A DNA stretch of 64,000 nucleotides, taken from positions 11,949 through 75,948 of the forward strand of contig CBDBBL010000018.1 in NCBI GenBank assembly GCA_965203125.1, given 5' to 3'. Shown piece after piece: positions 1,642 to 63,002 of the stretch; the stretch's first letter is position 1, and every line of letters starts with the position of its first letter. The stretch comes from Gammaproteobacteria bacterium. Its GTDB lineage: Bacteria > Pseudomonadota > Gammaproteobacteria > CBDBBL01. Made by a program: the position numbers and the translations under genes. The notes beneath the pieces were generated by a model, which saw only the letters and a program-made list of their open reading frames with translations, was not told the DNA's origin and made no database searches.

Positions 1642-1804
1642 TATACCCAAACTACTTGAAGAAGCCGAGACTTTAACATAATAAATTTGAGTAGAATAAA
1701 ATTTAAAAGATTGGGCAATAGCACCGCTATTGGAGAAGCTTTTAGATTTTATTCTGCCGAATTTATGCAGTTAAAGTCCAGTTTCTTCAAGTAGTTTGGG
1801 TATA
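1642..1804. mobile_element. MITE copy B1 (subfamily B: tatacccaaa..cttgaaga.gccg..ttaac...gcaatagcaccgctattg...cggcgtcttcaagt.gtttgggtata)
   Basis: ~163-bp palindromic element with long terminal inverted repeats. The same element recurs at 49225, 49813, 52026, 54898 and 58189, with a fragment at 8207. Confidence 0.85.
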
Positions 1805-8203: not shown

Positions 8204-8956
8204 TCAACCTATACCCAAATCAATTGAAGATGCCGAGGTTTTAACATCAAGCATTTGCTTCACAAAAGGTAGTGTAATAGCTCGCTTCATTTGTAGCGAG
8301 CACTCACTCAAATACGCCAACAAATCAAACAACGCTCCCAAATCACGATCATAACGTTGCAAGATATATGTTATAACAGGAAGCTTAATCACTAACGAAT
8401 GTCGCCTAGCCCACTCAATCAATATCGCTTGTTTGTCACGATCACTACAATTAGGCATTTTCAGAATAATCGCAGAAGATAACCTTGAGTTCAAATCTGC
8501 AAGCTCAAATGTGGTATTTTTAGGTGATGATTTCGATGCAATCAATAATTGCTTATTATCATCTAAACGCTGGTTATAACAGTCAAATAACGCTTCCTCC
8601 CATTCGCGTGATGACGGTAGCGCATCCAAATCATCCAAACACAAGACATCAAAGTCATTTAAGTTTTCAAATACATCTGGCGCTAAATTTTTCGTCTTAA
8701 ATGATAGATAAAAGCAAGTACGTGAATAATCACCTTGCAGCACGTGACTCACCGCTTGTAATAAATGCGTTTTCCCCGTAGAAAGAGCTCCAAATAAATA
8801 TAAGAAACGATGCTGATCTTTCAAGAACTGCTTGAGCATTTCAACAATTAGCTCAAGCTCCGACTGCCCTCCATTCAATCTGCATTGATTGGTATAGAAA
8901 TTCTCAAATGCTGCTGACTCTCTATGACTAAGGTTAAGCGTTAACTGTTGTGCCAT
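8204..8956 (-). CDS. hda: DnaA-related AAA+ protein Hda (regulatory inactivation of DnaA)
   Basis: 250 aa; Walker A LFGALSTGKTHLLQAV with DnaA-like box layout. The C-terminal ~10 aa (SASSIDLGIG) are encoded by a subfamily-B MITE fragment. Confidence 0.7.
   Translation of the reverse strand: MAQQLTLNLSHRESAAFENFYTNQCRLNGGQSELELIVEMLKQFLKDQHRFLYLFGALSTGKTHLLQAVSHVLQGDYSRTCFYLSFKTKNLAPDVFENLNDFDVLCLDDLDALPSSREWEEALFDCYNQRLDDNKQLLIASKSSPKNTTFELADLNSRLSSAIILKMPNCSDRDKQAILIEWARRHSLVIKLPVITYILQRYDRDLGALFDLLAYLSECSLQMKRAITLPFVKQMLDVKTSASSIDLGIG
8207..8252. mobile_element. solitary terminus of a subfamily-B MITE (ctatacccaaatcaattgaagatgccgaggttttaac)
   Basis: Matches the B-family terminal inverted repeat. 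It forms the 3' end of the hda ORF. Confidence 0.6.
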
Positions 8957-19121: not shown

Positions 19122-21071
19122 TTAGACTTTTATACCAATTGATAACTGCTTTACAGATTTCCCACCATAAACCGCATTAATGACAGCTCTGGTACAGAAA
19201 ACGGCTGTTATCATTGAAGTTAACAAACCAATGATGAGCGCAATCGCAAACCCTTTAACTTGAGAGCTACCTAAAGCCACCAAAACAACGGCAACAATTA
19301 ATGTGGTGACATTCGCATCAACAATGGTCGCAAATGCACGCTCATAACCTGCAAAAATAGCAGCTTGAATGGAAACACCATTACGTAGTTCCTCTCGAAT
19401 CCGCTCATTAATCAACACATTGGCATCCACCGCCATGCCAACGGTCAAGACAATCCCTGCAATACCATCCAGTGTCATAGTAAAGCCCATCAACGACATC
19501 ACTGCCACAATAAACACCACATTTAAAATTAACGCCATATTGGCAACCAAACCAAAGAATCGATAGTACAGCAGCATAAATATAATCACTAATAAAGACC
19601 CGACCTCCATGGACAACAACCCTTTATCAATATTAGCCTTCCCTAAACTTGGCCCTACCGTGGTTTCTTCCACAAAAGTTAGTGGTGCTTGCAACGCTCC
19701 CGAGCGCAATAATAGCGCTAAGTTTTGCGCCTCTTTTTGCGAAGATAAACTTGTAATTTGAAAATTTCCGCCCAACGCAGATTGAATCGTGGCAATATTA
19801 ATCACTTTCTCATGTTGCTGATGAATCGTCACGACCTTGCCACCAATCTTCTTTTTCACTGGCTTAGTTTCTACATACACAACCGCTAAGGGCTTACCTA
19901 TATTCTGCCCAGTCACGCGGTTAAACAAGCTTTCGCCACCACCGCCTAAACGAATATTCACATCAGGCTTACCATTCTCACCAAAGCTTGCATCAGCATA
20001 AGTAATTGAATCACCTGTTAAAATAGCCTGAGACTTCAATAACACAGGCTGCCCATCAAAGTGATATAACTTACTGCCAAACGGAACGGCTCCAGCAACA
20101 GCTGCCTGAACATCATGTGTTGTGTCAACCAATTGAAAGCTTAACGTTGCTGTCTTACCAATCAAGTTCTTCGCACGCGCGGCATCCTGAACACCGGGTA
20201 AATCCACACTAATATTACTAGCACCCTGGCGCTGCACGATTGCGGCACTGGTTCCTAATGCATCAACTCGCTTACGCAGTACCTGCATCGCTTGATTCAC
20301 AGCATAAGTTTGTGTTGCAACAATCGATTCATTGGTTAAAACCGCAACAATTTGCATACGAGAATTTTTTACACTCGTCCTAAACAAATAGTTATGAAAC
20401 TGTGGTTTTAAAACCTCAAGTGCTTTTGCCATCGATGATTGTGAACGAAACCCAATCATAATTTGAGAGCCTGTAGTAACACTTTGAGACTGTGTCGAAT
20501 GCCTCTGCGGATTTTTTTGTAGGATAGCCGCGTAACGAACATTATCTTTACGCAATGCCTGTGCCATTTGACGCATATCACTTTCTTGACGCGTTTTTAG
20601 CAATGCATTGCTATCTACATTCAATAAGAAATGAACGCCACCTTGCAAATCAAGTCCAAGCTTCATTGGATGAGCACCCAACATCGTTAACCAATGTGGC
20701 GTACGCGCTGCCAAATTGAGTGCTACCGTATAATTAGCACCCAACGCTTGTTTAATAGCATCTCTAGCTTTTATTTGTGCCGAAGCATCATGAAAACGCA
20801 CGAGAAAATCACCAACAGACTGCCCACTTTTCTCTATCTGTATTGATTTATAAAGTATATGTTTTTTTTCCAGAATCGTTTTTATTTTAGTACTCACTAC
20901 CATTAAATCACCTTGAGTAACATCAACTTTCGATTCACTAGCGGCTGAGTTTTGATGCGATATTTGCACAGCAGGATCATCGCCAAAAACATTGGGCAAT
21001 GCATATAGCACGCCAAAAACAATCATGGCAATCAATAAAACATACTTCCAAGCTGGATAGCGATTTAACAT
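19122..21071 (-). CDS. secD: protein translocase subunit SecD
   Basis: 649 aa with a large periplasmic domain and a C-terminal 6-TM bundle; position in the yajC-secD-secF order. Confidence 0.9.
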   Translation of the reverse strand: MLNRYPAWKYVLLIAMIVFGVLYALPNVFGDDPAVQISHQNSAASESKVDVTQGDLMVVSTKIKTILEKKHILYKSIQIEKSGQSVGDFLVRFHDASAQIKARDAIKQALGANYTVALNLAARTPHWLTMLGAHPMKLGLDLQGGVHFLLNVDSNALLKTRQESDMRQMAQALRKDNVRYAAILQKNPQRHSTQSQSVTTGSQIMIGFRSQSSMAKALEVLKPQFHNYLFRTSVKNSRMQIVAVLTNESIVATQTYAVNQAMQVLRKRVDALGTSAAIVQRQGASNISVDLPGVQDAARAKNLIGKTATLSFQLVDTTHDVQAAVAGAVPFGSKLYHFDGQPVLLKSQAILTGDSITYADASFGENGKPDVNIRLGGGGESLFNRVTGQNIGKPLAVVYVETKPVKKKIGGKVVTIHQQHEKVINIATIQSALGGNFQITSLSSQKEAQNLALLLRSGALQAPLTFVEETTVGPSLGKANIDKGLLSMEVGSLLVIIFMLLYYRFFGLVANMALILNVVFIVAVMSLMGFTMTLDGIAGIVLTVGMAVDANVLINERIREELRNGVSIQAAIFAGYERAFATIVDANVTTLIVAVVLVALGSSQVKGFAIALIIGLLTSMITAVFCTRAVINAVYGGKSVKQLSIGIKV

Positions 21072-36379: not shown

Positions 36380-39211
36380 CTATACAACAATTAATGCACC
36401 TAGAGCAATTTCATCAACAACAGGTAATAATTCTTTCCCTATAATAGCAACACTCGAGATTACGGCACTTAATTGAATACCTTTCCAGTTAGATTTTACT
36501 AAGCTTTTTGCCGATGTTTTTTGTAACATTATAGGTGGGATGTGATCTTTATCTTGCGGTTTAAGTGTAGCGGAAAATGCTATATCACCACTAATTTTCC
36601 AACTGTCAAAAACTTTGTCTATGGATGTTGGAGATGCTATAAAAACTAGATTATACCCAACCATTGTAATACTATCACTAACAAATTCCCCAGTAACTTT
36701 ACTACCAATCATTAACTGCTCATGACTAGTCGGTCGCAATGTCATCCCTGAGAAAAAATCACCCAACATATTCTTAGCCGATATTTTATACTGATTTAGA
36801 ACAAGTTTGCCAGCGGGATGCGTCCCTTGTTTTTGCAAACTCATACTACCAGACAAGGTTGTCTTATAGATGTATGGCTTATCTTCAAAAACAATCACAC
36901 CAGTCACTGGAGAAATCACACTCAACTCTAGTGATAGCACAGGAAACAGATTCGTCAATACTGTTGAGGCAGGTTTCAACTTTAGATCACCTACACTTAA
37001 ACTGGGCAATACACTCAACGATGGGGACGAGGACAGCACGGAGGCTTCCGCAGCCTTCCCTTGCCCACCTAAATTCATTTTACCTTGGGCATTACCTTGA
37101 GCAGACACCGCTTTTTGTGTATTCGTCAGCGGTTCTCCTCCACTGATTTTCCCGATCACTTCCACTTGGCTGCCGTTAATGGTTAGTCCTTGACCATCGA
37201 TTTGAAGCCGTGCCTGTCCATTGTGAATATTGATTTGCTTGCCTGCTTGTAGCCAGTGGTTGAGGTCACTGAGTATCGATAGGTTTCCTTGGTCTGCACT
37301 GACAATCAGGTTGCCCTGCTGGCTGTCCATACTGATTCCATCTCCAGCAATGATTTGATGATTTTTCTCAATTTGATGTTGTAGTTGCTGTTTGCTGATT
37401 ATCGTACTATTTTGCTCGCTCCGTTGGCTAATGTCTTTGTTTGCCACGCTGTGTTGACTACCTTTTTGACTCACTTGACTTGCATCACCTTCTATCGCTA
37501 GTTGATGTTGTCCCTTCGCTTGTTGTATGAAGTTATTTTCGGTTGTTGTGATGTGGTTTTGTTGCGCTGTTTCAGCCAGTGTGCCTTGTGAGGTCTTGAG
37601 CATAACACGATGTTGTTGTTCATTCGCATCGAGTTGTATTTGATGTTGTTTTTCTGCTGTCTGTAAGGTTATTTTGCTTTTTTTACTGTGATCATCTAAA
37701 CACAGTTGATGTCCACTTTGGGTTTGCAAATGATGTTGGTGTCGATTTTTTTGTGTCACCACACTATGTTGTTGTGAATGAGGAAAGGCGCCGAGTATGA
37801 TGGGGCGATTGGCATTACTGGCTTCAAAATCCACTAGTACCGTTGTACCTGTTAGCAAGGAGAGGTGTTTGCCGTGATTCGATCCATGATGATCCATGAG
37901 GTGACGAATACCACAGCGATCTGCCCCAATTCGCTGTTTGTCCTCATCCTCTTGTAATTCAAGATAATAATGCCCCTGCTCAGTGAGTGAAGCACTTGTC
38001 TTCATCGCATGAATGTTCCCCCAAGCATTACTGGAGTTCTTCGGCTGTTGTTGTGGCATCATTTGATAACGTTGTTCTGCCTTAATCATCGTAAGCTGGC
38101 TACAATCATTGCCACGGTTGGCTTGATGGTCAAGATCTGCATCGCTACCTTGCTGGCTCAACCCAATTAAACGCCATGTGCCGTTGATACTGAGCGTCGG
38201 GCAAGCTTCTATGGTGATTAAGCTACCCATGGGTAAATTAAGGCAATTTGATTTTGCAGTCAGTTGCTGGGCTTGTGTTTGGTGCGCGCGTTGATAGTTT
38301 CCAGCCAGTTGTTCTCCTTGTTTTTTGTCGATGTAGTCACTGCCATAAATCACATTTTTCGAGTCACTGGTTGAGACGTTTTCTTGTTTGTGATTTTTTT
38401 CTTGATGATTGGCTGTTAAATCAACATGAGGTCGTGAGAAGTGTGTTTGATGAAGCTGAGTTTTTTTTGGTAACGTATCGATTTGTCGACTTTGTATATC
38501 CCAAATACTTGGGGTAATTTTTTCATGGTTAGCCGCAAGGTCATTCGAGTTGATAAACCATAAGCTTTGTGATCGATCATTAATCGGCTGGTCATTGAAC
38601 CATAGTTCAAAATAATCGGCAAAATGGCGACAGTAAAAGACAATGCCGTGATCAGCACAAATACGTCGTAAAAAATCATAATCAGATTCATCAGCTAACT
38701 GTGTTATCAAGTCTTGTTGCCAATCACTATGGGTTATTTGAAAGTGTGCCTGCGCCTTTAATAGTGGATAATTGCTCAATACCTGCTGAATGATACTGCT
38801 GATCGTTTGATTAACAAAAGTACGGTGGTAGTTGCTATCTTTTAATAGTCGCAGTGGTGATTTGATACTGACGGCGTAATGAATACCTGATTCAGTTGTC
38901 TCATGGGGATCCAGTGTGACTTGAGCAATCATACCATGATAGTAAGCCTCAGGTTGACCGAAGGTTTCTAAGTGAAACACAGCATAAGATGACAAGTATT
39001 CTTGAAGCTGTTGCAATGCAATAGGATGTTGCACACACAGTGTTAGCTCAATGGCATAATCTGCAGAGATTTCTTCGTTGCAGAGTTTAAATTGACTAAC
39101 AGGATACGTCGATTGATCAATCTTTAAGCTTGCTTTCATCTTTGTACTTTGGCAAAGTTCTTTCGCCTGTACAATACTGGAAATCACGCTATAGCTAACA
39201 CGGTTAAGCAT
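36380..39211 (-). CDS. vgrG: type VI secretion tip protein VgrG with a ~250-aa C-terminal extension (evolved VgrG)
   Basis: gp27-like N-terminal region (…YHRTFVNQTISSIIQQVL…) and the gp5 OB-fold signature TVLVDFEASNANRPIILGAFPH (compare the canonical EVLVDFLEGDPDRPIITG). A long extension ends in a hydrophobic tail. The true start may be MKASLKID at ~39139. Confidence 0.8.
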   Translation of the reverse strand: MLNRVSYSVISSIVQAKELCQSTKMKASLKIDQSTYPVSQFKLCNEEISADYAIELTLCVQHPIALQQLQEYLSSYAVFHLETFGQPEAYYHGMIAQVTLDPHETTESGIHYAVSIKSPLRLLKDSNYHRTFVNQTISSIIQQVLSNYPLLKAQAHFQITHSDWQQDLITQLADESDYDFLRRICADHGIVFYCRHFADYFELWFNDQPINDRSQSLWFINSNDLAANHEKITPSIWDIQSRQIDTLPKKTQLHQTHFSRPHVDLTANHQEKNHKQENVSTSDSKNVIYGSDYIDKKQGEQLAGNYQRAHQTQAQQLTAKSNCLNLPMGSLITIEACPTLSINGTWRLIGLSQQGSDADLDHQANRGNDCSQLTMIKAEQRYQMMPQQQPKNSSNAWGNIHAMKTSASLTEQGHYYLELQEDEDKQRIGADRCGIRHLMDHHGSNHGKHLSLLTGTTVLVDFEASNANRPIILGAFPHSQQHSVVTQKNRHQHHLQTQSGHQLCLDDHSKKSKITLQTAEKQHQIQLDANEQQHRVMLKTSQGTLAETAQQNHITTTENNFIQQAKGQHQLAIEGDASQVSQKGSQHSVANKDISQRSEQNSTIISKQQLQHQIEKNHQIIAGDGISMDSQQGNLIVSADQGNLSILSDLNHWLQAGKQINIHNGQARLQIDGQGLTINGSQVEVIGKISGGEPLTNTQKAVSAQGNAQGKMNLGGQGKAAEASVLSSSPSLSVLPSLSVGDLKLKPASTVLTNLFPVLSLELSVISPVTGVIVFEDKPYIYKTTLSGSMSLQKQGTHPAGKLVLNQYKISAKNMLGDFFSGMTLRPTSHEQLMIGSKVTGEFVSDSITMVGYNLVFIASPTSIDKVFDSWKISGDIAFSATLKPQDKDHIPPIMLQKTSAKSLVKSNWKGIQLSAVISSVAIIGKELLPVVDEIALGALIVV

Positions 39212-42261: not shown

Positions 42262-43419
42262 CTAAACCCGCTGCAAAATAATACTACCGATCGAGTACCC
42301 AGCACCGAAAGAACATAACACCCCATAATCACCTGCAGAAAAATCATCATGATAATGATGAAATGCAATCACAGAACCCGCCGAACTTGTATTGCCATAA
42401 CAACTTAGGATTTGTGGCGCTTGCATTTCACTTGGTTCAACCCCAAGTACTTTTGTCGCAATCAAACGATTCATATTACTATTAGCTTGATGCAGCCATA
42501 AGCGCTGAATATCTTTTGCCTCAATCTTACACTTCTGTAGTTGCTGTCTCATAAACTCACTAGCCATCGGAACCACTTCTTTAAAAACTTTCCGACCCTG
42601 CTGTGTAATCGAGAGCTCTTCTGTACGACGAGGTGGTCTTTCACAGTGGTTTAAGAAGCCAAAGTTATTACGAATGTTATTGGAATATACGGTTTTTAGC
42701 TGACAATCAATCACTTGGAACGGACTTGAGCTTGTGGTCAAATCAGCTGATTCCAACAACATAGCTGTACACGCATCTCCGAAGATAAAGTGTGTGTCAC
42801 GATCGGTGAAATTTAAATGCGCTGTACAAATCTCAGGACTAAGCACTAATACTCTTTTAGCTTGGCCTGATGCCACATGATGATATGCTGATGAGAGTCC
42901 AAAAGTTGCAGAAGAGCAAGCCATGCTCATATCATAAGCAAAACCATCAATTCCCAGTTCTGCTTGCACTTCAACTGCAACAGCAGGATATCCACGTTGT
43001 AACATAGAGCAAGAAACAATGACACCATCAATATCAGCACCTGTAAGCTGCTGTTTATCTAGGACAGCTCGCGCTGCCTTAACTGCCATTTCTGCCTGTA
43101 TCGACAATTCGTCATTATTACGAGTGGATAAACAAGGGCGCATGCGATTAACATCCAAAATACCTGCTTTATCGATCACGTGTCGAGAACATATGCCAGA
43201 TGCTTTTTCGATAAATCCAGCATCAGAAAGTGGCTTTTGATCATCAGGAAATTGCTCATTATGCTGAGCAACAGCCTGGTTAAAACTAGCAACTAACTCA
43301 TGATTATCAATCGTATCCTCTGGCACATATAACCCAACACCACTTAGAACAACCGCTTTCACTATAATCCACCTTTTGCTATGAGTGCATCCTTGCGTAA
43401 CCAATATTGATTTAACCAC
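42262..43419 (-). CDS. FabH-like 3-oxoacyl-ACP synthase III-family condensing enzyme
   Basis: Cys-His-Asn triad in KAS III context (MACSSATFG; HQANSNMN; YGNTSSAGS), 385 aa, so longer than FabH. Confidence 0.75.
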   Translation of the reverse strand: MVKSILVTQGCTHSKRWIIVKAVVLSGVGLYVPEDTIDNHELVASFNQAVAQHNEQFPDDQKPLSDAGFIEKASGICSRHVIDKAGILDVNRMRPCLSTRNNDELSIQAEMAVKAARAVLDKQQLTGADIDGVIVSCSMLQRGYPAVAVEVQAELGIDGFAYDMSMACSSATFGLSSAYHHVASGQAKRVLVLSPEICTAHLNFTDRDTHFIFGDACTAMLLESADLTTSSSPFQVIDCQLKTVYSNNIRNNFGFLNHCERPPRRTEELSITQQGRKVFKEVVPMASEFMRQQLQKCKIEAKDIQRLWLHQANSNMNRLIATKVLGVEPSEMQAPQILSCYGNTSSAGSVIAFHHYHDDFSAGDYGVLCSFGAGYSIGSIILQRV

Positions 43420-44420
43420 GCTTTAAACTGTGTTTGAAATACTTGGTCATTCGCATAATCACCAATTAGGAATGACTTAATATCAAACGCTTGAATATAA
43501 ACTTGAATCACCGATGTTTTTCCACATAAGAATTGCCACAATGATTTCATTTTATCTGGGTACACGATGGTCACATCAATCATTTTATCCAGCTTATTCC
43601 CCATGATTTCCAAAGCATATGCCATCCCACCCGCCTTAGGCATTAATAAATGCTGAGCTGAAAAATGATTTCGTTGCTGTTTTTCCTGAGTAAAACGAGT
43701 CCCCTCTGGAAAGATCATTACAGAAGAAGGTAAGCTCAAAAACTGTTGACAACTTTTCTTTGTCGCCAACACATCTTTACCTTGAAGATGTGGCTTCTTG
43801 CGCAACAATGCTTTGGAGTAACGCTTCATAAACGGAAAATTCAATCCCCACCATGCCAAACCAATCACAGGAACCCACTTTAACTCATTTTTAAGAAAAA
43901 ATTTAAGCGTCGGAATCTTACCCAACAGCACTTTCTGTAACACAACAATATCTAACCAAGATTGATGATTAGCCGTCACCATATACCATTTATTAAGACT
44001 TAAACTTTCAAGGCAACCCTCACCAAAGAACAATTCAAAACGTGTTTTCAAGCTATATTTGACAAAAAAATTATTAACACGACTCCAGCCATTTGCCATC
44101 TTTGTTGCTAAATAACTCAACCCATTCCGCAACCTACGCACAGGCATGATCAATTTCAAACAAGCAAACACACATAATGGAATAGTCCAAAAAATAGTAT
44201 TTACTGCCAATAACAAGACTAAAGTGGCACCTTTTAACACTGCAAACATACTCGAAACAGATGAAAATGTCGATTTTCCAACACAAGGAATTTGAGTAGA
44301 ATCAGATTCAGAAACTCGAGTAATAGCATCCCTATTAGGAGAGCTTATGGAGCTGACTTCTGCCGAATTACTGCAGTTGGAATTCGACCTTTTCGTCTGT
44401 TTCGAGTATATACTTTTCAC
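43362..44420 (-). CDS. PlsC/LPLAT-family acyltransferase (HX4D), paralog 1; the N-terminal ~57 aa of the ORF are encoded by MITE C1, and the likely real start is MFAVLKG at ~44247
   Basis: Acyltransferase motif ANHQSWLDIVVL and FPEGTRF. It is a paralog of the protein at 61995-63002. Confidence 0.7.
   Translation of the reverse strand: MKSIYSKQTKRSNSNCSNSAEVSSISSPNRDAITRVSESDSTQIPCVGKSTFSSVSSMFAVLKGATLVLLLAVNTIFWTIPLCVFACLKLIMPVRRLRNGLSYLATKMANGWSRVNNFFVKYSLKTRFELFFGEGCLESLSLNKWYMVTANHQSWLDIVVLQKVLLGKIPTLKFFLKNELKWVPVIGLAWWGLNFPFMKRYSKALLRKKPHLQGKDVLATKKSCQQFLSLPSSVMIFPEGTRFTQEKQQRNHFSAQHLLMPKAGGMAYALEIMGNKLDKMIDVTIVYPDKMKSLWQFLCGKTSVIQVYIQAFDIKSFLIGDYANDQVFQTQFKAWLNQYWLRKDALIAKGGL
44256..44413. 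mobile_element. MITE copy C1 (subfamily C: tatatactcgaaacagatgaaaatgtcga…agtaatagc.…gctatt…tcgacattttcatctgtttcgagtatat)
   Basis: Terminal inverted repeats and central motif shared with copy C2 at 50611. Confidence 0.75.
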
Positions 44421-47197: not shown

Positions 47198-48421
47198 TCA
47201 CCTCCCACCTTTGCAAACCCAAGCACAAAAAAGACTCAACAACAGCATGATCCCAACTAGATATACAATAAACAATTCCGATAGAGACGCAATGTGCAAT
47301 AAACCAAGCGTTGATGATAAGATTGCAGCCACTAGGTACACTAAAGATCCCATCACTGCATTGGCTACTCCTGCCATATCTGGAAATGCGGCAATTGCTC
47401 TAGAAAAAAAGGCAGGAAACGTCATACCACTGAACATACAAACCAAGAAAGCAATGACAGTCAGCAAGGTTAACTGAGCAGTTATAACATGAGCAATTCC
47501 TATCCCAATCACAATCGTTAAAAATAAAGCGACCAGTATTAGCATCAGTAATCGTCTACCATCCCATGGATTAAGAAGACGATAACCGAGTGTACCAACA
47601 ACATACCCTGCTCCAATCATTAAAGCGATATATCCATAATGTAGTGGTGAAACGTGCCAAATATTTTGAACTAAGAATGGAGCTGATACCCCAAATATAA
47701 TCAGTAAGAAATAAAGCGATCCTAATATAGCACTACTCAAAATAAATGAAGTGTTTGACAGCACTGTTAAATAACGTCCTACTATATCTTTAATCGTTAA
47801 CTTAACTAAATGCTGATTGGTTTCTTGCACCACAACTCCATTGGACAAATAGATAGCCAATGAATAAATCGCGTAAAAATAAAAACACGACTGCCAACCC
47901 CATGTATACGTGAGCCATCCTCCAACCCATGGAGCTACAATAGGACCTACACCCCAAGCAATGGTCATGTAAGTACCCACATGCCGTAGCTTTTCTCCTT
48001 GATAGGTGTCTGATGATTGAGCCCTTAATACTGCATTGACAGCACCTGCACTCACACCCTGTAGGTAGCGAAACCCAATGATAAGATAAATATTATGAGT
48101 ACAACTAATAGCAATGCTAGCAATTAAAAAGACAAAGCTACAATATTGAATAATAGGTCGCCTGCCGATCATGTCTGATAGCATCGGCAAAATAAATTGC
48201 CCAAAAAAATTCCCTAAGAAGAAAAAGCTGACTGTTAACTTTATTAATGCACTAGAGACACCAAAATAATGTGCCATACTGGGCAGAGCAGGTGAATATA
48301 AATCCGTGCCAATTCCGCTAAAAGGTGTTGCTAGTAAAATTGCAAACAACACATACTCTGCTGAATTTTTCTTTGTATTCATTTCCAGCACATCCAAGAC
48401 TCGTTGTATTTTTGCGGGCAT
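47198..48421 (-). CDS. MFS transporter (drug:H+ antiporter-like)
   Basis: 407 aa with 12 TM segments and the MFS motif GxLSDxxGRRP (LSDMIGRRP). The 5' end abuts MITE A4. Confidence 0.8.
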   Translation of the reverse strand: MPAKIQRVLDVLEMNTKKNSAEYVLFAILLATPFSGIGTDLYSPALPSMAHYFGVSSALIKLTVSFFFLGNFFGQFILPMLSDMIGRRPIIQYCSFVFLIASIAISCTHNIYLIIGFRYLQGVSAGAVNAVLRAQSSDTYQGEKLRHVGTYMTIAWGVGPIVAPWVGGWLTYTWGWQSCFYFYAIYSLAIYLSNGVVVQETNQHLVKLTIKDIVGRYLTVLSNTSFILSSAILGSLYFLLIIFGVSAPFLVQNIWHVSPLHYGYIALMIGAGYVVGTLGYRLLNPWDGRRLLMLILVALFLTIVIGIGIAHVITAQLTLLTVIAFLVCMFSGMTFPAFFSRAIAAFPDMAGVANAVMGSLVYLVAAILSSTLGLLHIASLSELFIVYLVGIMLLLSLFCAWVCKGGR

Positions 48422-48422
48422 A

Positions 48423-48586
48423 TATACCCATCACCATTCAAGAAACCGATTTTTAACTTCATAAATTTTGCAAAATTGAAATTTAAAAACTTTCGCAATA
48501 GCCTGCTATTACTCGATTTTTCAAATCTAATTTTACTAAAATTCATTTTGTTAAAACTCCAGCGTCTTGAATGGCGATGGGTATAG
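48423..48586. mobile_element. MITE copy A4
   Basis: tatacccatcaccattcaagaaaccgatttttaac…cgcaatagcctgctattactcg…ccagcgtcttgaatggcgatgggtatag. Confidence 0.85.
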
Positions 48587-48675: not shown

Positions 48676-49797
48676 TCAATTTACCACCAAGTCTCGACCC
48701 AACCAATGTTGCGCCACTTCCGCACCTCGGTAAGGTGGCATCACCGTGTTCTTTGATACCTCTGGCTGCCAACCCTTTTTCGCAAGAAATATTGCCGTTC
48801 CACGCTTTTCACTGTACGCACAAGCACCGAACGTAGAGATATTCCAGCGGTATTTTTGAAAAGTTTCAAAATCAAACTGATGCCTTTTCATACCTTTTAT
48901 ACTTGGCTGCCAACCTTCTAGCTGAAAAAAAGTATCAGGCTTACCTTGCCAAACGGTTGTCGGGCCAATTAAAAACGACAATAAAAAACCATCGTTTTTC
49001 TTTGCACTTGACTGATTGATACGCAGATAATTGCTCGAATGCAAATTAACCGCCAAAGTGTAATGGGAATTACCTAGATTATGATGTTGATCACGCGACA
49101 ATTGCTGCCGAAACGATCTCAAAAACCCCGACCTAGATCGATCCTCAACATCTCTGACCACAAAATGTCCGCCCAAGAGAAATAATTTCAGAAACTCCCT
49201 GACATTAACATCCGAGTTATCGTTGATACCTAAAGCGTTTGAAGATGTCGAGGATTTAACATAATGAGTTTGAGCAGAATCAAATTTACAGAATGGCGCA
49301 ATAGCACCGCTATTGCGAGAGCTTGTAGATTTGCATTCTGACAAACTCATGCCGTTAAAGTTCGGCGTCTTCAAGTGCTTTGGGTATAGAGATAAATCAT
49401 AATGTTGGTAACCTAAAATACGATAAGTTGGAGCAGCTCCTGATTTACCCACATATTCTAGCTGTGGTTTATACATCACTAACTTATGCTCAATCACATA
49501 TCTCTTAATAAATTGGATAAGTGCCCTATCCTTACTATTTGTTCCCTCAGGCGTTTTCCCATTCCAAAGCTCAACCAAATAATCTAAAGTACGATTGAAA
49601 TTCTGCAACGAATAAACAACATGATCACTTCCTTGCTGATAAATACTGTCCTGATAACGATCTAAATTACGCACACCCTGCTCAAAGAGACTATTAACAT
49701 ATTGATTTTTATTACTCAAAGAAGCATCAAGATTCACAATCGAGGCCTGACTAAGTGCAAAACACCCCATCAATAACACACCAATAAAAGCCCTCAT
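48676..49797 (-). CDS. secreted hypothetical protein (signal peptide) carrying an in-frame 55-aa MITE-encoded insert
   Basis: Signal peptide MRAFIGVLLMGCFALSQA. The internal segment LYPKHLKTPNFNGMSLSECKSTSSRNSGAIAPFCKFDSAQTHYVKSSTSSNALGI is encoded by MITE B2. Confidence 0.5.
   Translation of the reverse strand: MRAFIGVLLMGCFALSQASIVNLDASLSNKNQYVNSLFEQGVRNLDRYQDSIYQQGSDHVVYSLQNFNRTLDYLVELWNGKTPEGTNSKDRALIQFIKRYVIEHKLVMYKPQLEYVGKSGAAPTYRILGYQHYDLSLYPKHLKTPNFNGMSLSECKSTSSRNSGAIAPFCKFDSAQTHYVKSSTSSNALGINDNSDVNVREFLKLFLLGGHFVVRDVEDRSRSGFLRSFRQQLSRDQHHNLGNSHYTLAVNLHSSNYLRINQSSAKKNDGFLLSFLIGPTTVWQGKPDTFFQLEGWQPSIKGMKRHQFDFETFQKYRWNISTFGACAYSEKRGTAIFLAKKGWQPEVSKNTVMPPYRGAEVAQHWLGRDLVVN
49225..49389. 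mobile_element. MITE copy B2, in frame inside the CDS 48676-49797
   Basis: …gcgtttgaagatgtcgaggatttaac…gcgcaatagcaccgctattgcgagag…gttcggcgtcttcaagtgctttgggtatag. Confidence 0.8.
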
Positions 49798-49812: not shown

Positions 49813-49976
49813 TATACCCAGACCACTTGAAGACGCCAGACTTTAACGGTATGAGCTCGGCAGAATGCAAATTTAAAAGTTTTCCCAATAGCGATGCTAT
49901 TGCTCAATCTTTTAAATCTGATTCTGCTCAAGCTCATTATGTTAAAACCTCGGTGTCTTCAAGTAATTTGGGTATA
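49813..49976. mobile_element. MITE copy B3
   Basis: tatacccagaccacttgaagacgccagactttaac…cccaatagcgatgctattgctc…cctcggtgtcttcaagtaatttgggtata. Confidence 0.85.
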
Positions 49977-52103: not shown

Positions 52104-52188
52104 AGCAAGCCTATGGTGAGTTTTTTTAAATTGAATGACACCAAAAACATGAAGCTAAAAAGCAGTATCTTCAACTGCTTTGGGTATA
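52026..52188. mobile_element. MITE copy B4 (core more diverged)
   Basis: tatacccagcgcagttgaagatatcgagtttttatc…aatcatagcaagcctatggtg…gcagtatcttcaactgctttgggtata. Confidence 0.75.
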
Positions 52189-54897: not shown

Positions 54898-55061
54898 TAT
54901 ACCCAAACCGCTTGGAGACGCCGAGGCTTTAACATAAGGAGCTTGAGCAGAATCAGATTTAAAAGATTGAGCAATAGCACCGCTATTGGGAAAGATTTTA
55001 GATTTGTATTCTGCTGAGATCATGCCGTTAAAGTTTGGTGTCTTCATGTGGTTTGGGTATA
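54898..55061. mobile_element. MITE copy B5; its right end encodes the last ~10 aa of the Bax-like protein
   Basis: tatacccaaaccgcttggagacgccgaggctttaac…gcaatagcaccgctattggg…gtttggtgtcttcatgtggtttgggtata. Confidence 0.85.
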
Positions 55062-55759
55062 CATTGTGCATACTGACCCAAATCATATTGCAGAATAATG
55101 TGCTGAATCGTTGATACGTACCAAACACCTCTCTCAGAGTAATTACTCAATCCTACCGCCATCTGCACACCCAAGTTCATCGTCTTCTTCTCACTCAAGA
55201 AGTCTCGACGAATCTGCCACAATTGTTTGTGCGCTGAATTACGGTTTAAGTTTAAAAAATAAGCAGCCACGGAGGCTTGCCTTGTTGGAAACTTCTGCAC
55301 TGCAAAACGCCACTGACTAGAACGATCTTTCGGCTTCAAACCACACTGTGGCTGAGAGCACCATTGACCAAAATAGTTATGTGCCTGCCTAGCAAACCGT
55401 GACTGCCCCCATGCTGACTCATTAATCGCTTGCGCTAACACCAAAGAAGCAGGAATGATGTTTACTCTTAAACTTAACTGCTGAAATAAACGACGATTAA
55501 CTCCAACAAATGGTAGATTAAAACGTGCCGCTAATGATAACAACCACATCTTCTCTACTGAATTCAAATGATTGTTGGCTTGCCATAACGATTGATAATG
55601 TAAAATCAATTGGTGCATTTTGTGATACTTCACATTAGTTGCACAAATTGCTGGCACCATTTTTTGAATAAACTGAGTCTGCTTCTCAGTTAGTTTTTTA
55701 GGCGCAGCGTAACTGTATGATGAGAAAATAATACAATAGCAAATCAACACCCATTTCAT
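55028..55759 (-). CDS. Bax-like secreted protein with a glucosaminidase (FlgJ C-terminal type) domain
   Basis: Signal peptide, then ASLVLAQAINESAWGQSRFARQAHNYFGQW, typical of the mannosyl-glycoprotein endo-beta-N-acetylglucosaminidase domain. The C-terminus IPKPHEDTKL is MITE-derived. Confidence 0.65.
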   Translation of the reverse strand: MKWVLICYCIIFSSYSYAAPKKLTEKQTQFIQKMVPAICATNVKYHKMHQLILHYQSLWQANNHLNSVEKMWLLSLAARFNLPFVGVNRRLFQQLSLRVNIIPASLVLAQAINESAWGQSRFARQAHNYFGQWCSQPQCGLKPKDRSSQWRFAVQKFPTRQASVAAYFLNLNRNSAHKQLWQIRRDFLSEKKTMNLGVQMAVGLSNYSERGVWYVSTIQHIILQYDLGQYAQCIPKPHEDTKL

Positions 55760-58554
55760 GCTGAAATCAGACTTTTGGTGACCACCTCTTTCACATCATT
55801 GGACAATCCTTGATTTTGCTTAATCCGCTCTAACACCTGCTTCATCAGCTGCTGTCGTGGCAAATCAAACTTCCTCCAGTAAATCAATGGCTCTACCAGC
55901 CGAGCTGCCAGTTGTGGATTAAAACGATCTGCCTCCAAGATTTGCTGTTGCAGAAAATGATAGCCTGAACCATCAATCACATGAAATGCGATTGGATTAT
56001 TAACACAAAACTGTCCCACCAAAGCACGCACTTTATTTGGATTACAAGCATCATATGCCTCATGTTCCAATAATACTTGTACTCGACTCAACGCGCTGCC
56101 TCCTTCAAGCGAATCATGAGCAGTTGCTTGTAATGACAACCACTTATCGACCACTAGTGCTTGGCTCTGCCAGCGTCGATAAAAATGCGCTAACTGTTCA
56201 TTCCTTTGGACTGAAGCCACTTGATTCAATGCTATTAACGCCCCAAATTCATTAGTCATATTACGTGAACACTGGTACTGATCAACACAATGCGCTCTAA
56301 TTTCTGGCGTCGATGCTATTGCTAGCAACTTCATGCTTGCATTTTTTAAAGCCCGCAGCCCAATTTGATCACTATCATACTCAGCAGTACCTGTCTTATT
56401 TTGCTGACTTAACACCAATAATGAGGACCTTAAAGCAATCGAAATTGCTTGCTGATAATGATCTAATGCTTGAGCTAAATATTCCAACCTCACTTGATCA
56501 AACATAGCTATTAACTCTGCTAAAGTCGGCAATGTTAACAGTCGCGCTTTCAACCCACAGTCAAGTGTATCATCATCCACAATGCACTGGTAAGCATTGA
56601 TAATACGCTGATCAATTTGGACAACCCCACCTTGTTTCAAGCTATCATTTGCTTGCTGAATTGCCCCTATCAGCAATTGATTAGTAATATCCCAACGATT
56701 AAACCCATCTGTTTCATGCTGCATCAGACATAAAAGTGAATCAATTGAATAAGTATAATTCATTTTAACTGGCGCTGAAAAACCACGATTTAATGAAACA
56801 ATGGGCTGTTCATCAACCGACTCAAAAATAAACGTTTCCACTTCCTGCGTCACATGTAATACATTGGAGTCACTTAAGCTTCCCTGTTTCAACATCAATG
56901 GTATTTGCTGCCCATCATGAGTAAACAACCCAATACGCAACGGAATAAAAAACGGCAACTTTTCAGAACCATCTGCTGTATTATCACAATGCTGCTCAAT
57001 CGTTAAATGGTAATACTGTGTTGCCTCATCATAACGGTCTGTCACCGTCAGAATCGGCGTTCCTGCCTGATGATACCAGCGTTCAAATTGTGTTAAATCA
57101 AATTCTGATACTTCGGACATGCAAGCGACAAAATCTTCTGTCGTCACCGCTTGCCCATCAAAACGAGAAAAATATAAATCAGTCCCTTGACGATATTTTT
57201 CTTGCCCCAGCAAGGTATGCAACATGCGAATCACTTCCGCACCTTTGTTGTATACAGTCACCGTATAAAAGTTATTAATCTCATCAAAATGATCAGGACG
57301 AATGGGATGCGCCATCGGTCCTGCATCTTGTGCAAACTGTGCACTACGAATGATCTTAACATCATCAATCCGTGTCACCGCTTGCCCAACCTGATCTTCG
57401 GTAAAAGACTGGTCACGAAAAACGGTTAAGCCTTCTTTTAAACTTAATTGGAACCAATCTCGACAAGTGACACGATTACCTGACCAATTATGAAAATATT
57501 CATGTGCAACAACACCTTCCACTGCAATCAAATCTGCATCTGTTGCAGTTTGTGCATTCGCTAAAACATATTTGGTATTGAAAATATTGAGCCCTTTATT
57601 CTCCATCGCACCGAAGTTAAAGTCACTCACAGCAACAATCATGTAAATATCTAAATCATATTCACGACCATATTTCTCCTCATCCCAACGCATTGCACGC
57701 TGTAAAGAAGCCATTGCATGTTGTGTTTGATCTAAAAACCCTTTCTCCACATAGAGCTTTAAATCAACATTACGTCCCGACTGAGTAATAAACTGATCAG
57801 ATAAACAATCAAAATCACCTGCAACTAACGCAAATAAATAACAAGGTTTTAAGGATGGATCCTGCCAAACCACTTGATGACGCCCATCAGCAAGATCACA
57901 AGCATCGATTTGATTACCATTAGATAACAACTGGGGAAATTTGCTTTTATCTGCTCGAATTGTGGTCGTAAAATACGACAGTACATCAGGACGATCCAAA
58001 AAATAAGTAATCCGTCGAAAACCATGTGATTCACATTGCGTACAGTAGTTGTCATTAGAAATGTACAGCCCGCTTAAAGTTTTATTAGTCTTCGGACTAA
58101 TAAAAACTGTCGTTTCCAATAAGAATGACTCACTGGGTGGATTCAGAATCGTTAAACCTGTCTCATCAACCTGATAATCAGTACCATCTATACCCAAATC
58201 ACTTGAAGACGCCGAGGTTTTAACATAATGAGCTTGAGCAGAATCAGATTTAAAAGATTGAGCAATAGCATCGCTACTGGGAAAACTTTTAGATTTGTAT
58301 TCTGCCGAGCTCATGCCGTTAAAGTCCGGCGTCTTCAAGTGATTTGGGTATAAAACTTGCCCATTGAGCTTAAGCATATGTAATTCAAGTTGTTCCCCAT
58401 TAAGAAACAGTGGCTCATGAGCAGGTGTATGCGCTTGTCTTTTTAACTTTAACTGACTAATAACACAAGTACGTTCTTCGGCTAAATCAAAAATCAACTC
58501 AACTTGGCTGATTTGGTAATTCGGCACTTGATAGTCTTTTAAATAAGTTGTCAT
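55756..58554 (-). CDS. pepN: aminopeptidase N (M1 family) with an in-frame 54-aa MITE-encoded insertion near the N-terminus
   Basis: HEYFHNWSGNRVT…LKEGLTVF zinc-binding and gluzincin motifs, collinear with E. coli PepN. The extra segment YPNHLKTPDFNGMSSAEYKSKSFPSSDAIAQSFKSDSAQAHYVKTSASSSDLGI matches MITE B6 exactly in position. Confidence 0.9.
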   Translation of the reverse strand: MTTYLKDYQVPNYQISQVELIFDLAEERTCVISQLKLKRQAHTPAHEPLFLNGEQLELHMLKLNGQVLYPNHLKTPDFNGMSSAEYKSKSFPSSDAIAQSFKSDSAQAHYVKTSASSSDLGIDGTDYQVDETGLTILNPPSESFLLETTVFISPKTNKTLSGLYISNDNYCTQCESHGFRRITYFLDRPDVLSYFTTTIRADKSKFPQLLSNGNQIDACDLADGRHQVVWQDPSLKPCYLFALVAGDFDCLSDQFITQSGRNVDLKLYVEKGFLDQTQHAMASLQRAMRWDEEKYGREYDLDIYMIVAVSDFNFGAMENKGLNIFNTKYVLANAQTATDADLIAVEGVVAHEYFHNWSGNRVTCRDWFQLSLKEGLTVFRDQSFTEDQVGQAVTRIDDVKIIRSAQFAQDAGPMAHPIRPDHFDEINNFYTVTVYNKGAEVIRMLHTLLGQEKYRQGTDLYFSRFDGQAVTTEDFVACMSEVSEFDLTQFERWYHQAGTPILTVTDRYDEATQYYHLTIEQHCDNTADGSEKLPFFIPLRIGLFTHDGQQIPLMLKQGSLSDSNVLHVTQEVETFIFESVDEQPIVSLNRGFSAPVKMNYTYSIDSLLCLMQHETDGFNRWDITNQLLIGAIQQANDSLKQGGVVQIDQRIINAYQCIVDDDTLDCGLKARLLTLPTLAELIAMFDQVRLEYLAQALDHYQQAISIALRSSLLVLSQQNKTGTAEYDSDQIGLRALKNASMKLLAIASTPEIRAHCVDQYQCSRNMTNEFGALIALNQVASVQRNEQLAHFYRRWQSQALVVDKWLSLQATAHDSLEGGSALSRVQVLLEHEAYDACNPNKVRALVGQFCVNNPIAFHVIDGSGYHFLQQQILEADRFNPQLAARLVEPLIYWRKFDLPRQQLMKQVLERIKQNQGLSNDVKEVVTKSLISA
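58189..58352. mobile_element. MITE copy B6, in frame inside pepN
   Basis: tatacccaaatcacttgaagacgccgaggttttaac…gcaatagcatcgctactggg…gtccggcgtcttcaagtgatttgggtata, 164 bp. Net 162 bp if TA is a shared target duplication. Confidence 0.85.
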
Positions 58555-58647: not shown

Positions 58648-60288
58648 TTAGAACCTGTAAAAAACAACTGGGTTTCTTGCAGGGTCAGGGTGATAAACAT
58701 TCATAAAATCAAGCATTGTGTATGATCCTTGCTGGTAGCACATTGCATCACATGAACATGCTTCTGGTCTTTGATAATGCCTCTTAACATAAGCTAACTT
58801 CATCGGCAGGTTTTGCAAAATCGACTCCATCTCTCTTAAGTGCATATTCACACCTCGAATCACGATTTCTTGTGTTAATCTAAATCGTTTACAAATCTTA
58901 CACAACGGTTCAAATAAAGCATACAGCTGCGCCCACTGGATCAATGTCGAAGTTGTCAAGATTAGATCAACACGATAACTTTGATCACTCTGCTTATCTA
59001 ATGGATCAAAATAATACAACTCTGCCGATTTAATCAAGTCACCTAACTGCATTCTTAAGATCTGCGTGATACTATTTTCTGACACAATCGGCGCATAATC
59101 AAGTGGTAAGATTCTAAGTTTGACCAGTTGCTTACGTAAAGCAAACAGTGAAATTAGCTTTGCTTGAGGGTTCAAAGCGACAGGAAGCTGCTTTAAATTG
59201 TGTTGCTTAAATTTATCCATCGAATAGTAACAGTGGATACTCTGATCAGTTGCTGTTTTTACCTCAACAAACGCAAACTTTTTTTGATGGGTTAGCACCT
59301 CATGGGTTAATAACCTACCTGATTTATCAAACAAACAAGGTGTCATCTTACGACCAGCCCAGTACCCATAACCATATTCAAAACCCAATTGCTCATATTG
59401 CTCAATATCCCTTAAAGCAATGAAGCAATACACGGGAATACCATTAACAGGTACAGATATAAAAGTTAAATTTGCCCAAGCAACATGTTGATGCTGCTGC
59501 ACCCGTGATGAAAAGCTAAAATACTCGCTTGAATTTAATCTAAAATCAGCGTTTTGACGAAACATATATTGTGCATATTGTTCGTAACTGATTGCACTTG
59601 TTGCCGGAAAACTGTTTTGTGCATCAGTTAGGAAATAACCATCGGCAGTATATTTGAACATGGCAGGCATTTGCTCAGGATGCTGGTGATAACGATTGAG
59701 CCTTTGCAAAGCGTCATCTTGATTATTCGGCATATGTTGTATAAATCTTGCCAATCCACCAATATCTTTCGCACTAATATGGGAATCAGCAGTTCCTCCC
59801 AGTGGATAGTCGTCTCCAGTTGATATCGCACCTAACTGATGTAATCCTGCATAAGTTAAAACCACTTCACCTGCTCGAAATTTTCGATTGGCAAATAAAC
59901 CACACCCAACTCGATCATCTATCTTTGCGACAATAAAATCATCCGAAGGGGATTGACATAAACGAACAGACACCAATCGTTGTAAGTCTCTATCGAACGC
60001 TTGTGGTGGTAATTCCATTTCTCTATCGATTTGAGGTGTCACCCATGTGCTTTCTGAGTATTGAAAGTGATGTATCACCTCAAGCCTTGATACTGCTGTC
60101 CTAGTAATTCTACTAGGAATAATCGGTACCTGATCCATTGTTAATACATAGTCAGAACTAGCACTTTTCACACGATCTATATTCACATGTCTTCTCGAAG
60201 TAGTCACAATGTTTGCCGATTGAACAATACGCTGTGATGATTGATGAGAACGGCGATATTTTTTCTTAGCTTTGCGACCCATAGGCAT
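58648..60288 (-). CDS. SET-domain protein (putative protein lysine methyltransferase; eukaryotic-like effector candidate) with a basic NLS-like N-terminus
   Basis: Three SET signatures in order: GxG region VGCGLFANRKFRAGEVVLTYAGL; NHSC-like ARFIQHMPN; ELxFDY-like EQLGFEYGYGYW. The N-terminus reads MPMGRKAKKKYRRSHQ. No secretion-system signal recognisable from sequence. Confidence 0.5.
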   Translation of the reverse strand: MPMGRKAKKKYRRSHQSSQRIVQSANIVTTSRRHVNIDRVKSASSDYVLTMDQVPIIPSRITRTAVSRLEVIHHFQYSESTWVTPQIDREMELPPQAFDRDLQRLVSVRLCQSPSDDFIVAKIDDRVGCGLFANRKFRAGEVVLTYAGLHQLGAISTGDDYPLGGTADSHISAKDIGGLARFIQHMPNNQDDALQRLNRYHQHPEQMPAMFKYTADGYFLTDAQNSFPATSAISYEQYAQYMFRQNADFRLNSSEYFSFSSRVQQHQHVAWANLTFISVPVNGIPVYCFIALRDIEQYEQLGFEYGYGYWAGRKMTPCLFDKSGRLLTHEVLTHQKKFAFVEVKTATDQSIHCYYSMDKFKQHNLKQLPVALNPQAKLISLFALRKQLVKLRILPLDYAPIVSENSITQILRMQLGDLIKSAELYYFDPLDKQSDQSYRVDLILTTSTLIQWAQLYALFEPLCKICKRFRLTQEIVIRGVNMHLREMESILQNLPMKLAYVKRHYQRPEACSCDAMCYQQGSYTMLDFMNVYHPDPARNPVVFYRF

Positions 60289-61955: not shown

Positions 61956-62119
61956 TATACCCATCACCTTTCAAGACGCCGGAGTTTTAACAAAATGAAT
62001 TTTAGAAAAATTAAATTTAAAAAATCGAGTAATAGCAAGCTATTGCGAAAGTTTTTACATTTCAATTTTGCAAAATTTATGAAGTTAAAATTCGGTTTCT
62101 TGAATGGTGATGGGTATAG
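61956..62119. mobile_element. MITE copy A6; it supplies the ATG and first ~13 codons of the downstream acyltransferase
   Basis: tatacccatcacctttcaagacgccggagttttaac…cgagtaatagcaagctattgcg…cggtttcttgaatggtgatgggtatag. Confidence 0.85.
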
Positions 62120-63002
62120 ATACCCATTAGCACTTCTTAGTATCATACTATACACACTATCCCTCACAAGCATTGCTATTCTCAGTATTTTACTGCTTCC
62201 ATTACAATACCTAGTTCTTAAATCATCTTGGCGTCACGCCGTTCGCAACGCACTCTATAAACACTTAACTGAGCTTTGGGTACTTATAAATCATTGGATA
62301 TTCCAGCTTACTTGCAAAACTAAACTGGAAGTGGTCGGGGAACAAACGTTGTCTGAAGATAACTGGTATTGCATCATGGCTAACCATCAATCCTGGGTTG
62401 ATATCCTCCTCATGGGTGAACTCTTGCGTAAAAAAACACCTCCGCTACGCTTTTTCATGAAACAAGAACTGATTTGGCAAATCCCTATCGTAGGTATCGC
62501 ATGCTGGGCGTTAGGTTACCCTTTCATGAAACGTTATTCTCGCGCCTATTTACAGAAACATCCTGAAAAACGAGGTCAGGATTTAGAAACCACAAAACGA
62601 TTTTGTCAAAAATTTAAAACATTGCCCATTTCTATTTGTAATTACGCTGAGGGAACACGCTTCACCTCAGCAAAACACAAACGACAACAATCAAACTATA
62701 CTCATTTATTGAAACCGCGTGCTGGAGGCATTGCCTTTGTATTAGCTGCTATGGATGGCATGGTGAAGCACCTTGTGGATGTCACCATGGTTTATCACCA
62801 CAATAAGCCCAATACTTGGAACTTCTTGTGTGGGAGAATTAACAAAATCACCCTACACTATCAAGTCATTCCAATCACAACAGATTTGATTGGTGACTAT
62901 AATAACGACTCAGCGTTTCGCAACCATTTTCAACAGTGGATCAATCAACGTTGGGAAGAAAAAGATCTACTGATTGACACTATCAAACACGACTCTCGAT
63001 GA
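61995..63002 (+). CDS. PlsC/LPLAT-family acyltransferase (HX4D), paralog 2; the functional start is probably the MITE-internal ATG at ~62079 (MKLKFGFLNGDGY…)
   Basis: MANHQSWVDILLMG and AEGTRF motifs; collinear with the paralog at 43362-44420. There is no in-frame ATG between the MITE and the HX4D motif. Confidence 0.7.
   Translation: MNFRKIKFKKSSNSKLLRKFLHFNFAKFMKLKFGFLNGDGYRYPLALLSIILYTLSLTSIAILSILLLPLQYLVLKSSWRHAVRNALYKHLTELWVLINHWIFQLTCKTKLEVVGEQTLSEDNWYCIMANHQSWVDILLMGELLRKKTPPLRFFMKQELIWQIPIVGIACWALGYPFMKRYSRAYLQKHPEKRGQDLETTKRFCQKFKTLPISICNYAEGTRFTSAKHKRQQSNYTHLLKPRAGGIAFVLAAMDGMVKHLVDVTMVYHHNKPNTWNFLCGRINKITLHYQVIPITTDLIGDYNNDSAFRNHFQQWINQRWEEKDLLIDTIKHDSR

Follow-up and report, generated by a model that had tools for sequence, protein, structure and literature searches.

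Rickettsia palindromic elements (RPEs) are repeats of about 150 bp with one conserved open frame, which occur in many unrelated housekeeping genes of one genome and are read through as part of the encoded proteins (Ogata et al. 2000, 2002). In R. conorii, 44 insertions have been reported, nearly half of them translational fusions, and the inserts were judged compatible with the fold of the host protein (PMC10969869). Here we describe a 164-bp MITE (a miniature transposable element with inverted repeats) that lies in frame within pepN, the gene for aminopeptidase N, in a 64-kb stretch of contig CBDBBL010000018.1 (the window; all coordinates refer to this whole stretch). The element is described here as RPE-like for its behaviour, and not as a member of an RPE family. 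RPEs belong to the alphaproteobacterial genus Rickettsia and form consensus families of their own, whereas the window element comes from what appears, from the identity of its proteins to known homologues, to be a deep-branching gammaproteobacterium, carries terminal inverted repeats (TIRs) of the ERIC (enterobacterial repetitive intergenic consensus) type with TA flanks, and has an interior without known match.

Translated repeats are not confined to RPEs. In-frame fusions with protein genes have been described for ERIC/RU-1 and RU-2 in Enterobacterales (PMC2759123) and for pneumococcal BOX, a Bordetella repeat and cyanobacterial MITEs (PMC3184786), and a 2024 review calls in-frame fusions between repeats and proteins 'not unusual'. 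ERIC-type elements (ERIC, IRU or RU-1 in Enterobacterales and Vibrio) share with the pepN element TIRs of the form TATACCC...TT(C/G)AAG and a 5'-TA-3' at both termini (PMC2759123; PMC3184786), and within transcripts such repeats can trigger RNase E-dependent decay (PMC3184786). Unlike the pepN element, ERIC is about 127 bp long, with a net length of 125 bp that is not a multiple of three, and has a conserved core; its reported fusions lie mostly at gene ends, whereas copies of the window type can be fully internal, with the downstream frame kept. Correia elements (CREE) of Neisseria are known mainly for intergenic promoter, terminator and RNase III effects rather than for insertions translated in frame. 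They too are MITEs (about 104-157 bp long, with 26-bp TIRs, approximately, and a duplicated TA target), and they are co-transcribed with genes as long RNA hairpins (PMC3184786). By description, they differ from the window element in TIR sequence and host. QMITE1 and QMITE2 of Coxiella burnetii (PMC5896051), a host-associated gammaproteobacterium, are MITE families that overlap annotated open reading frames (ORFs) and give rise to short peptides, which are basic in QMITE1, an element of about 400 bp. Their overlaps are mostly short and C-terminal, and they form no series of internal 54-residue inserts in enzymes.

The element in pepN occupies positions 58189..58352 and has a TA at each end. Its 26-nt arms, TATACCCAAATCACTTGAAGACGCCG (58189..58214, with the TA at 58189-58190) and CGGCGTCTTCAAGTGATTTGGGTATA (58327..58352, with the TA at 58351-58352), are complementary at 26 of 26 positions, and its ends read TATACCCA...TTSAAGAYGCCG. 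These are exactly the borders proposed in a first-pass annotation of the DNA. With TIRs, TA at both ends, a small size, no transposase gene of its own and many dispersed copies in different flanks, the element has the hallmarks of a MITE. No Rfam family matched it in the window, and neither a sigma-70-like promoter nor an intrinsic terminator was found within it. As RNA, it forms a hairpin of -83.9 kcal/mol (z = -12.7).

The host gene, pepN (55756..58554, minus strand; identified by Pfam, phmmer and Foldseek), is an uninterrupted ORF that encodes a 932-residue M1-family aminopeptidase N. All four Pfam domains are present (Peptidase_M1_N, Peptidase_M1, DUF3458 and DUF3458_C), and the 932-residue product is on record as a called protein in NCBI/ENA. 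Phmmer matched it to E. coli PepN at E = 6e-253, and the match breaks at the insert: residues 3-65 align with E. coli residues 4-64, and residues 127-929 with 70-865. Aligned with 15 orthologues of 50-55% identity, the protein shows 54 additional residues that face a gap in every orthologue, as they do in E. coli PepN, and the flanks on either side (…LNGQVL and DGTDYQVDE…) have the same length in the orthologues as in the window protein. The first-pass annotation had taken the segment for an insertion and not for ancestral PepN sequence, which this alignment bears out. An intein, an intron and ancestral sequence were dropped as explanations of the segment in view of its TIRs, its TA ends, its many non-genic copies and its absence from all orthologues. 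A second TIR-like stretch in pepN, a 20-nt match (18/20) at 57865..57884, was rejected as chance; it codes for the conserved GRHQVVWQD and is no footprint of the element.

The inserted peptide, YPNHLKTPDFNGMSSAEYKSKSFPSSDAIAQSFKSDSAQAHYVKTSASSSDLGI (YPNH...DLGI; PepN residues 69-122), is the minus-strand translation of 58189..58350, as had been claimed. Pfam matched no family to these residues. The element takes up nucleotides 203-366 of the gene on the coding strand, and the junctions in the 932-residue protein read …NGQVLYPNHLK… and …SSSDLGIDGTDYQVDETGLTILNPPSESFLLETTVFISPK. On the gene strand, the TA at 58351-58352 forms positions 2-3 of the Leu68 TTA codon. Excising 162 nt in silico leaves a single TA and a 2637-nt ORF of 878 residues that reads …LKLNGQVLDGTDYQVDETGL…, with V-L-D at the join (...GQVLDGTDYQV...); an empty site would read GTT TTA GAT. 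The net gain is thus 162 nt (3 x 54), or 54 codons, the value that the first-pass annotation had given. A TA within the TTA codon, one TA after excision and a gain of 162 nt are together the geometry expected of a transposon that duplicates its TA target.

The catalytic motifs of PepN lie downstream of the insert (57433..57612, minus strand). GAMEN (residues 315-319), HEYFH (351-355) and E374 do not vary among the window protein and its 15 orthologues, and the HEXXH-X18-E motif is kept. An AlphaFold2 model was built on a 16-sequence alignment (predicted TM-score, pTM, 0.81; mean predicted local distance difference test, pLDDT, 79.9). Compared by Foldseek with E. coli PepN (2hpo), it gave a TM-score of 0.96, normalised to the target, and a root-mean-square deviation of 2.4 Å. 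In the model, the insert follows strands 57-63/66-67 and precedes strand 127-129, at a site where the orthologues have a short turn, in agreement with the N-terminal beta-domain position suggested earlier. Residues 75-124 have a pLDDT below 50 and no secondary structure; the insert is thus predicted, with low confidence, as a loop without structure that emerges where a beta-hairpin of this domain turns. A content of 24% serine and a grand average of hydropathy (GRAVY) of -0.68 are in line with an exposed, flexible loop.

The element belongs to a family that is abundant in the window. A blastn census with the whole element found about 12 full-length copies and at least five fragments, which together make up about 3.5% of the 64 kb; a 22-nt TIR core (up to three mismatches) matched eight times, against 0.00 expected from 100 shuffles. 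Every copy starts with TATACCC and ends with GGGTATA. Two subfamilies can be told apart, and a net length divisible by three is found in the A-subfamily only. Its members are 164 bp long at 58189 (the pepN copy), 49813, 54898 and 49225, and 163 bp long at 1642 (1642..1804, intergenic, without an open frame). The copy at 49813..49976 (plus strand) is also intergenic; it is 94.5% identical to the pepN copy, and the same frame is still open in it. B-subfamily copies are 163 bp long at 61956..62118, 54557-54719 and 48423..48585, and truncated at 40896-41052, 4080-4235 and 42106-42251; a further copy at 52026-52188 is divergent. The perfect pairing of the TIRs in the pepN copy is unique in the window, other copies pairing at 20-24 of 26 positions, and the pepN copy is probably the youngest, as judged from its sequence. 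Of its six frames, the A element has only one without stop codons. A single open frame also turns up in about 16% of shuffled elements and therefore calls for no particular explanation.

The pepN insertion is not the only one of its kind. A second complete A-subfamily copy (49225..49388, minus strand; YPKH...NALGI) lies entirely within the ORF 48676..49797 and is read in the same stop-free frame as in PepN. With TIRs that pair at 20 of 26 positions and 84% identity to the pepN copy, it appears to be the older of the two. The ORF has 118 phmmer matches at E <= 1e-10 among 1.84 billion representatives, and homologues of about 315-340 residues match it in two stretches; the YPKH…NALGI segment of 54 residues is absent from all nine homologues that were aligned. 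To judge from this conservation, the ORF is a real gene for a conserved uncharacterised protein. The first-pass annotation had pointed to the related peptides NALGI and IDLGIG in other proteins; the former belongs to this complete in-frame copy, and the latter is the C-terminus of Hda (8204..8956), where a 38-bp solo-TIR remnant (8210..8247, minus strand) forms the tail ...SSIDLGIG* with the stop codon. Of the 250 residues of the protein, the Hda profile covers those up to about 236-241.

Further proteins match through the MITE-derived stretch only, all of them single-member clusters (NCBI and ENA). To judge from their shared provenance, the contigs that encode them seem to be part of the draft assembly from which the window comes. 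Identified with NCBIfam, these carriers include AroA (peptide at residues 406-464 of 505), UbiH (322-386 of 456), a Ca/Na antiporter of the CaCA family (143-200 of 371, in the central loop), a PARCEL-repeat lipoprotein (69-126 of 585) and a DedA/PAP2 protein (666-728 of 738), each with the peptide internal and each on another contig. Counting PepN and the 48676..49797 protein, at least seven proteins carry it internally, which amounts to in-frame insertion of one repeat family into many unrelated genes, as in RPEs. Also on other contigs, the called products MurG, TsaB and Dxr carry it at the N-terminus, possibly through mis-called start codons. In 10 of 11 carriers, the peptide directly follows L, I or V (an xTA codon), and it ends with Ile or Met, encoded by ATA or ATG; both ends thus place the TA target at codon positions 2-3. 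The list of carriers is incomplete, since it draws on representatives of 50% clusters only, and is biased to detectable, frame-preserving cases. A word-index search with the 54-residue peptide returned five small intergenic ORFs and missed PepN itself, and is unfit as a census. Two longer-than-usual proteins were rejected as MITE cases: SecD (19122..21071), which has no inverted repeat, and a 655-residue homologue of aspartyl-tRNA synthetase (AspRS), whose extra length comes from an internal duplication. SecD has 649 residues, about 49 beyond the span of its NCBIfam profile.

By its ends and its target, the pepN element is of the ERIC type. The window TIRs agree with the ends of E. coli ERIC at 16-20 of 26 positions (B-subfamily TIR and left end, 20/26; A-subfamily TIR and right end, 18/26) and with a Vibrio ERIC end at 22 of 26. 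The 112-bp interior does not align with the ERIC core, and because both this interior and the length differ from the 127-bp ERIC, the element is not ERIC sensu stricto. The TIR pattern TATACCCANNNNNNTTSAAGAYGCCG was found in at least 91 stretches in other bacteria; the hosts among the matches listed include Photobacterium, Vibrio, Enterovibrio, Xenorhabdus, Photorhabdus, Morganella, Colwellia, Psychromonas and Shewanella, as well as metagenome-assembled genomes (MAGs) of Methylophagaceae and Endozoicomonadaceae and 'Bacterium sp. HQB-39'. Elements bounded by such TIRs elsewhere carry quite different cargoes. One of them, from Vibrio kasasachensis, is a true ERIC of 127 bp that shares 95 of 127 positions with the E. 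coli ERIC/RU-1 consensus (Delihas 2007, PMC2759123). A 37-nt interior pattern had no match in GTDB (one genome per species) and none in JGI metagenomes; as far as these two collections show, the interior appears to be private to this genome. A looser 21-nt interior pattern gave 15 JGI metagenome loci, all of which were rejected as chance matches of 21-31 nt that do not extend into the element.

In-frame fusion of a MITE as such is already documented for RPEs and ERIC/RU-1. New here are a previously unseen 164-bp family with ERIC-type ends, a net length in multiples of three that permits internal insertions, and RPE-like repetition in a gammaproteobacterium. The first-pass annotation had stressed that the RPE likeness occurs here in a gammaproteobacterium; in view of the ERIC/RU-1 fusions described earlier (PMC2759123), this is no first for the group. 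The analogy itself has turned out stronger than could be seen at first, because at least seven proteins of apparently the same genome carry the peptide internally.

How often an insertion of this kind spares the gene can be calculated. The pepN gene has 158 TA sites, which makes 316 combinations of site and orientation. The ORF stays open in 57 of these (18%), all of them forward insertions at codon phase 2, with the TA at codon positions 2-3. ORFs of at least 150 codons cover 81% of the window, yet of the 12 full-length copies only two lie wholly inside an ORF. These two have the permissive frame, and the window showed no intragenic copy that breaks a frame. A rough binomial estimate for so few internal copies is about 3e-6, a value that ignores the higher density of TA sites in intergenic DNA and overlaps with gene ends. 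Few internal copies, both in the permissive frame, are the pattern that selection would leave if it purged insertions that disrupt genes and spared those that merely add a loop.

We consider it likely, with a probability of roughly 80%, that a TA-targeting, non-autonomous transposon with ERIC-type TIRs inserted into the Leu68 TTA codon of pepN, and that the ORF was kept with the insert as a neutral loop. A transposase supplied in trans would move the element into TA dinucleotides; in pepN, it would have entered the TA of the Leu68 codon and duplicated it. Three features would then have preserved the ORF: the gain of 162 nt, the position of the TA at codon positions 2-3, and a stop-free orientation and frame. 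The added nucleotides would be read as a serine-rich, hydrophilic segment of 54 residues that extends as a disordered surface loop from the beta-hairpin turn, leaving the four PepN domains and the zinc site untouched. The enzyme may have retained its activity, and the insert peptide itself is most likely functionless. Selection would remove insertions that break genes, while frame-compatible copies at permissive positions would stay in them.

Several points weigh against this proposal. In the 64 kb covered, no cognate transposase was identified, and because none of the collections searched yielded an empty-site allele or a close relative (52-55% identity for the best PepN homologue), target duplication and mobility are inferred. 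The low confidence of the loop in the model reflects missing information and is no proof of disorder. One alternative is that a very recent insertion has already crippled pepN through misfolding, cleavage of the mRNA at the hairpin or poor translation, and that the ORF is intact by chance in an expendable gene. A prior of 18% for preserving the ORF is not small. As far as is known, the pepN gene is dispensable in E. coli, and to call its product an 'essential-type' peptidase, as the first-pass annotation did, is unsupported. With the only 26/26 TIR of the window, 94.5% identity to another copy and a probable rank as the youngest, the pepN copy makes the intact ORF weak evidence for a working 932-residue protein. 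The element hairpin in the mRNA could attract RNases or slow ribosomes, and given its -83.9 kcal/mol and the RNase E-dependent decay that ERIC-type repeats can trigger (PMC3184786), reduced expression of pepN is possible. Several observations nevertheless speak against a crippled pepN: the older copy at 49225..49388 sits in an uninterrupted ORF of 373 codons from a conserved family, a frame-preserving insert is also found in the biosynthetic genes aroA and ubiH, frame-breaking intragenic copies are missing from the window, and the motifs and modelled fold of PepN are intact. We therefore regard recent crippling as unlikely. The earlier suggestion that this reading frame is tolerated inside proteins holds insofar as the same frame is read in other proteins; tolerance itself can only be put conditionally, with a pepN copy that is perhaps very recent.

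Could the peptide instead have been co-opted as a functional module, such as an interaction, targeting or regulatory loop, and be kept by positive or purifying selection? Its occurrence in the same frame inside at least seven proteins, and at several N-termini too, would fit, as would the open frame of intergenic copies. The differences between the pepN and 49225 copies, at 5, 13 and 9 sites in codon positions 1, 2 and 3, fall mostly on the first two positions, and since the A copies show no concentration of differences at third positions, there is no visible constraint on the peptide sequence. The peptide is moreover predicted to be unstructured, its hosts are unrelated and carry it in N-terminal, central or C-terminal positions, the N-terminal cases may be mis-called start codons, and one open frame is what some 16% of shuffled elements have anyway. 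Co-option is accordingly very improbable. An assembly artefact, in which the repeat was misjoined into pepN, might be suspected of what appears to be a draft assembly rich in the repeat, and one could also imagine ancestral PepN sequence as the source of the repeat. Yet pepN continues in frame and at orthologue length on both flanks, with a TA on each side, the segment is missing in 15 of 15 orthologues, and the element has TIRs and many dispersed copies in different flanks; the chance of either is next to nil. Beyond the proposed neutral insertion, the A-subfamily may have become adapted to intragenic life, its net length of 3n, stop-free frame, hydrophilic and disorder-prone peptide and xTA targeting having been shaped in a master copy. 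This extension is doubtful. If true, the family would be able to spread into coding DNA, in a genome that is gene-dense and host-associated, as an independent, ERIC-derived counterpart of the RPE system, and loops of PepN, AroA and UbiH that bear a 54-residue insertion would form a natural experiment.

The findings suggest that repeated, translated in-frame insertion of palindromic elements into housekeeping enzymes is not confined to Rickettsia, since an ERIC-type MITE behaves alike in an unrelated gammaproteobacterium. They offer a second natural system for studying the tolerance of proteins to large inserted loops, and for asking whether inserts of this kind ever gain a function. Their importance is less than it first seems, because reviews call in-frame MITE fusions not unusual.

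Other copies meet the ends of genes. The A-subfamily copy at 54898..55061 (minus strand) provides the stop codon and last residues of a bax-like ORF (55028..55759) that lies directly downstream of pepN. The B-subfamily copy at 61956..62118 (plus strand) holds the ATG and first 41 codons of a YihG-family lysophospholipid acyltransferase ORF (61995..63002), and a MITE fragment at 44248..44366 (minus strand) lies in the N-terminal extension of a second YihG-family ORF (43362..44420). The TrmJ ORF (3328-4119) begins inside the copy at 4080-4235. In these three proteins, the family profiles start at residue 46 (61995-63002), residues 56-60 (43362-44420) and residue 16 (TrmJ). The MITE copies may have supplied a new start codon and N-terminal peptide to the two YihG-family proteins and TrmJ, or the starts may be mis-called. 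Gene callers appear to extend or start ORFs inside MITE copies in these three cases and in MurG, TsaB and Dxr, and with ORF calls running into MITE copies, annotation of this genome needs MITE masking. The B-subfamily copy at 48423..48585 abuts the start codon of a major facilitator superfamily (MFS) transporter (47198..48421). It stops 2 nt upstream of the ATG, which leaves the MITE end as the only place for any ribosome-binding site.

Two further element classes with ERIC-type TIRs were seen in other bacteria. Elements of 264-267 bp with the same type of TIR occur in Vibrionaceae, Colwellia, Psychromonas, Paraglaciecola, a Methylophagaceae MAG and HQB-39. Among our loci, they are found in L002 (minus strand, from 2921), L005 (3353-3618), L010 (6369-6632), L011 (4549-4814), L013 (1146-1411), L027 and L085, and in HQB-39 at many loci (L001, L004, L014 and others). 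Their sequences differ widely; length and fold are conserved. RNAalifold of eight copies gave 98 pairs, of which 63 show compensatory double changes, in a fold of two arms closed by the TIR stem. No Rfam family matched the class at the gathering threshold, and its interior could be a structured-RNA or structured-DNA cargo. Hairpins of 60-62 bp, in L020 and L036 (Enterovibrio) and in L048, L075, L080, L081 and L091, consist of two ERIC-type TIRs with almost no interior and would seem to be this element superfamily reduced to a minimum.

The apparent placement of the host is based on its proteins: the nearest AspRS homologues are about 66-68% identical and include Methylophaga, and the nearest named PepN homologues are 47-49% identical and include Stutzerimonas and Entomomonas. 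Directly upstream of pepN, at 58648-60288, lies the gene for a 546-residue SET-domain protein (Pfam E = 3.5e-8). The SET methyltransferase domain is eukaryote-like and typical of intracellular or host-associated bacteria. Together with a VgrG protein (36380..39211) and the PARCEL-repeat lipoprotein, it suggests a host-associated lifestyle. A short ORF at 60486-60812 ends in …RRRHSAINYVTPDQFE, which resembles the C-terminus of an IS3-type integrase and may mark a transposase remnant unrelated to the TA-targeting MITE.

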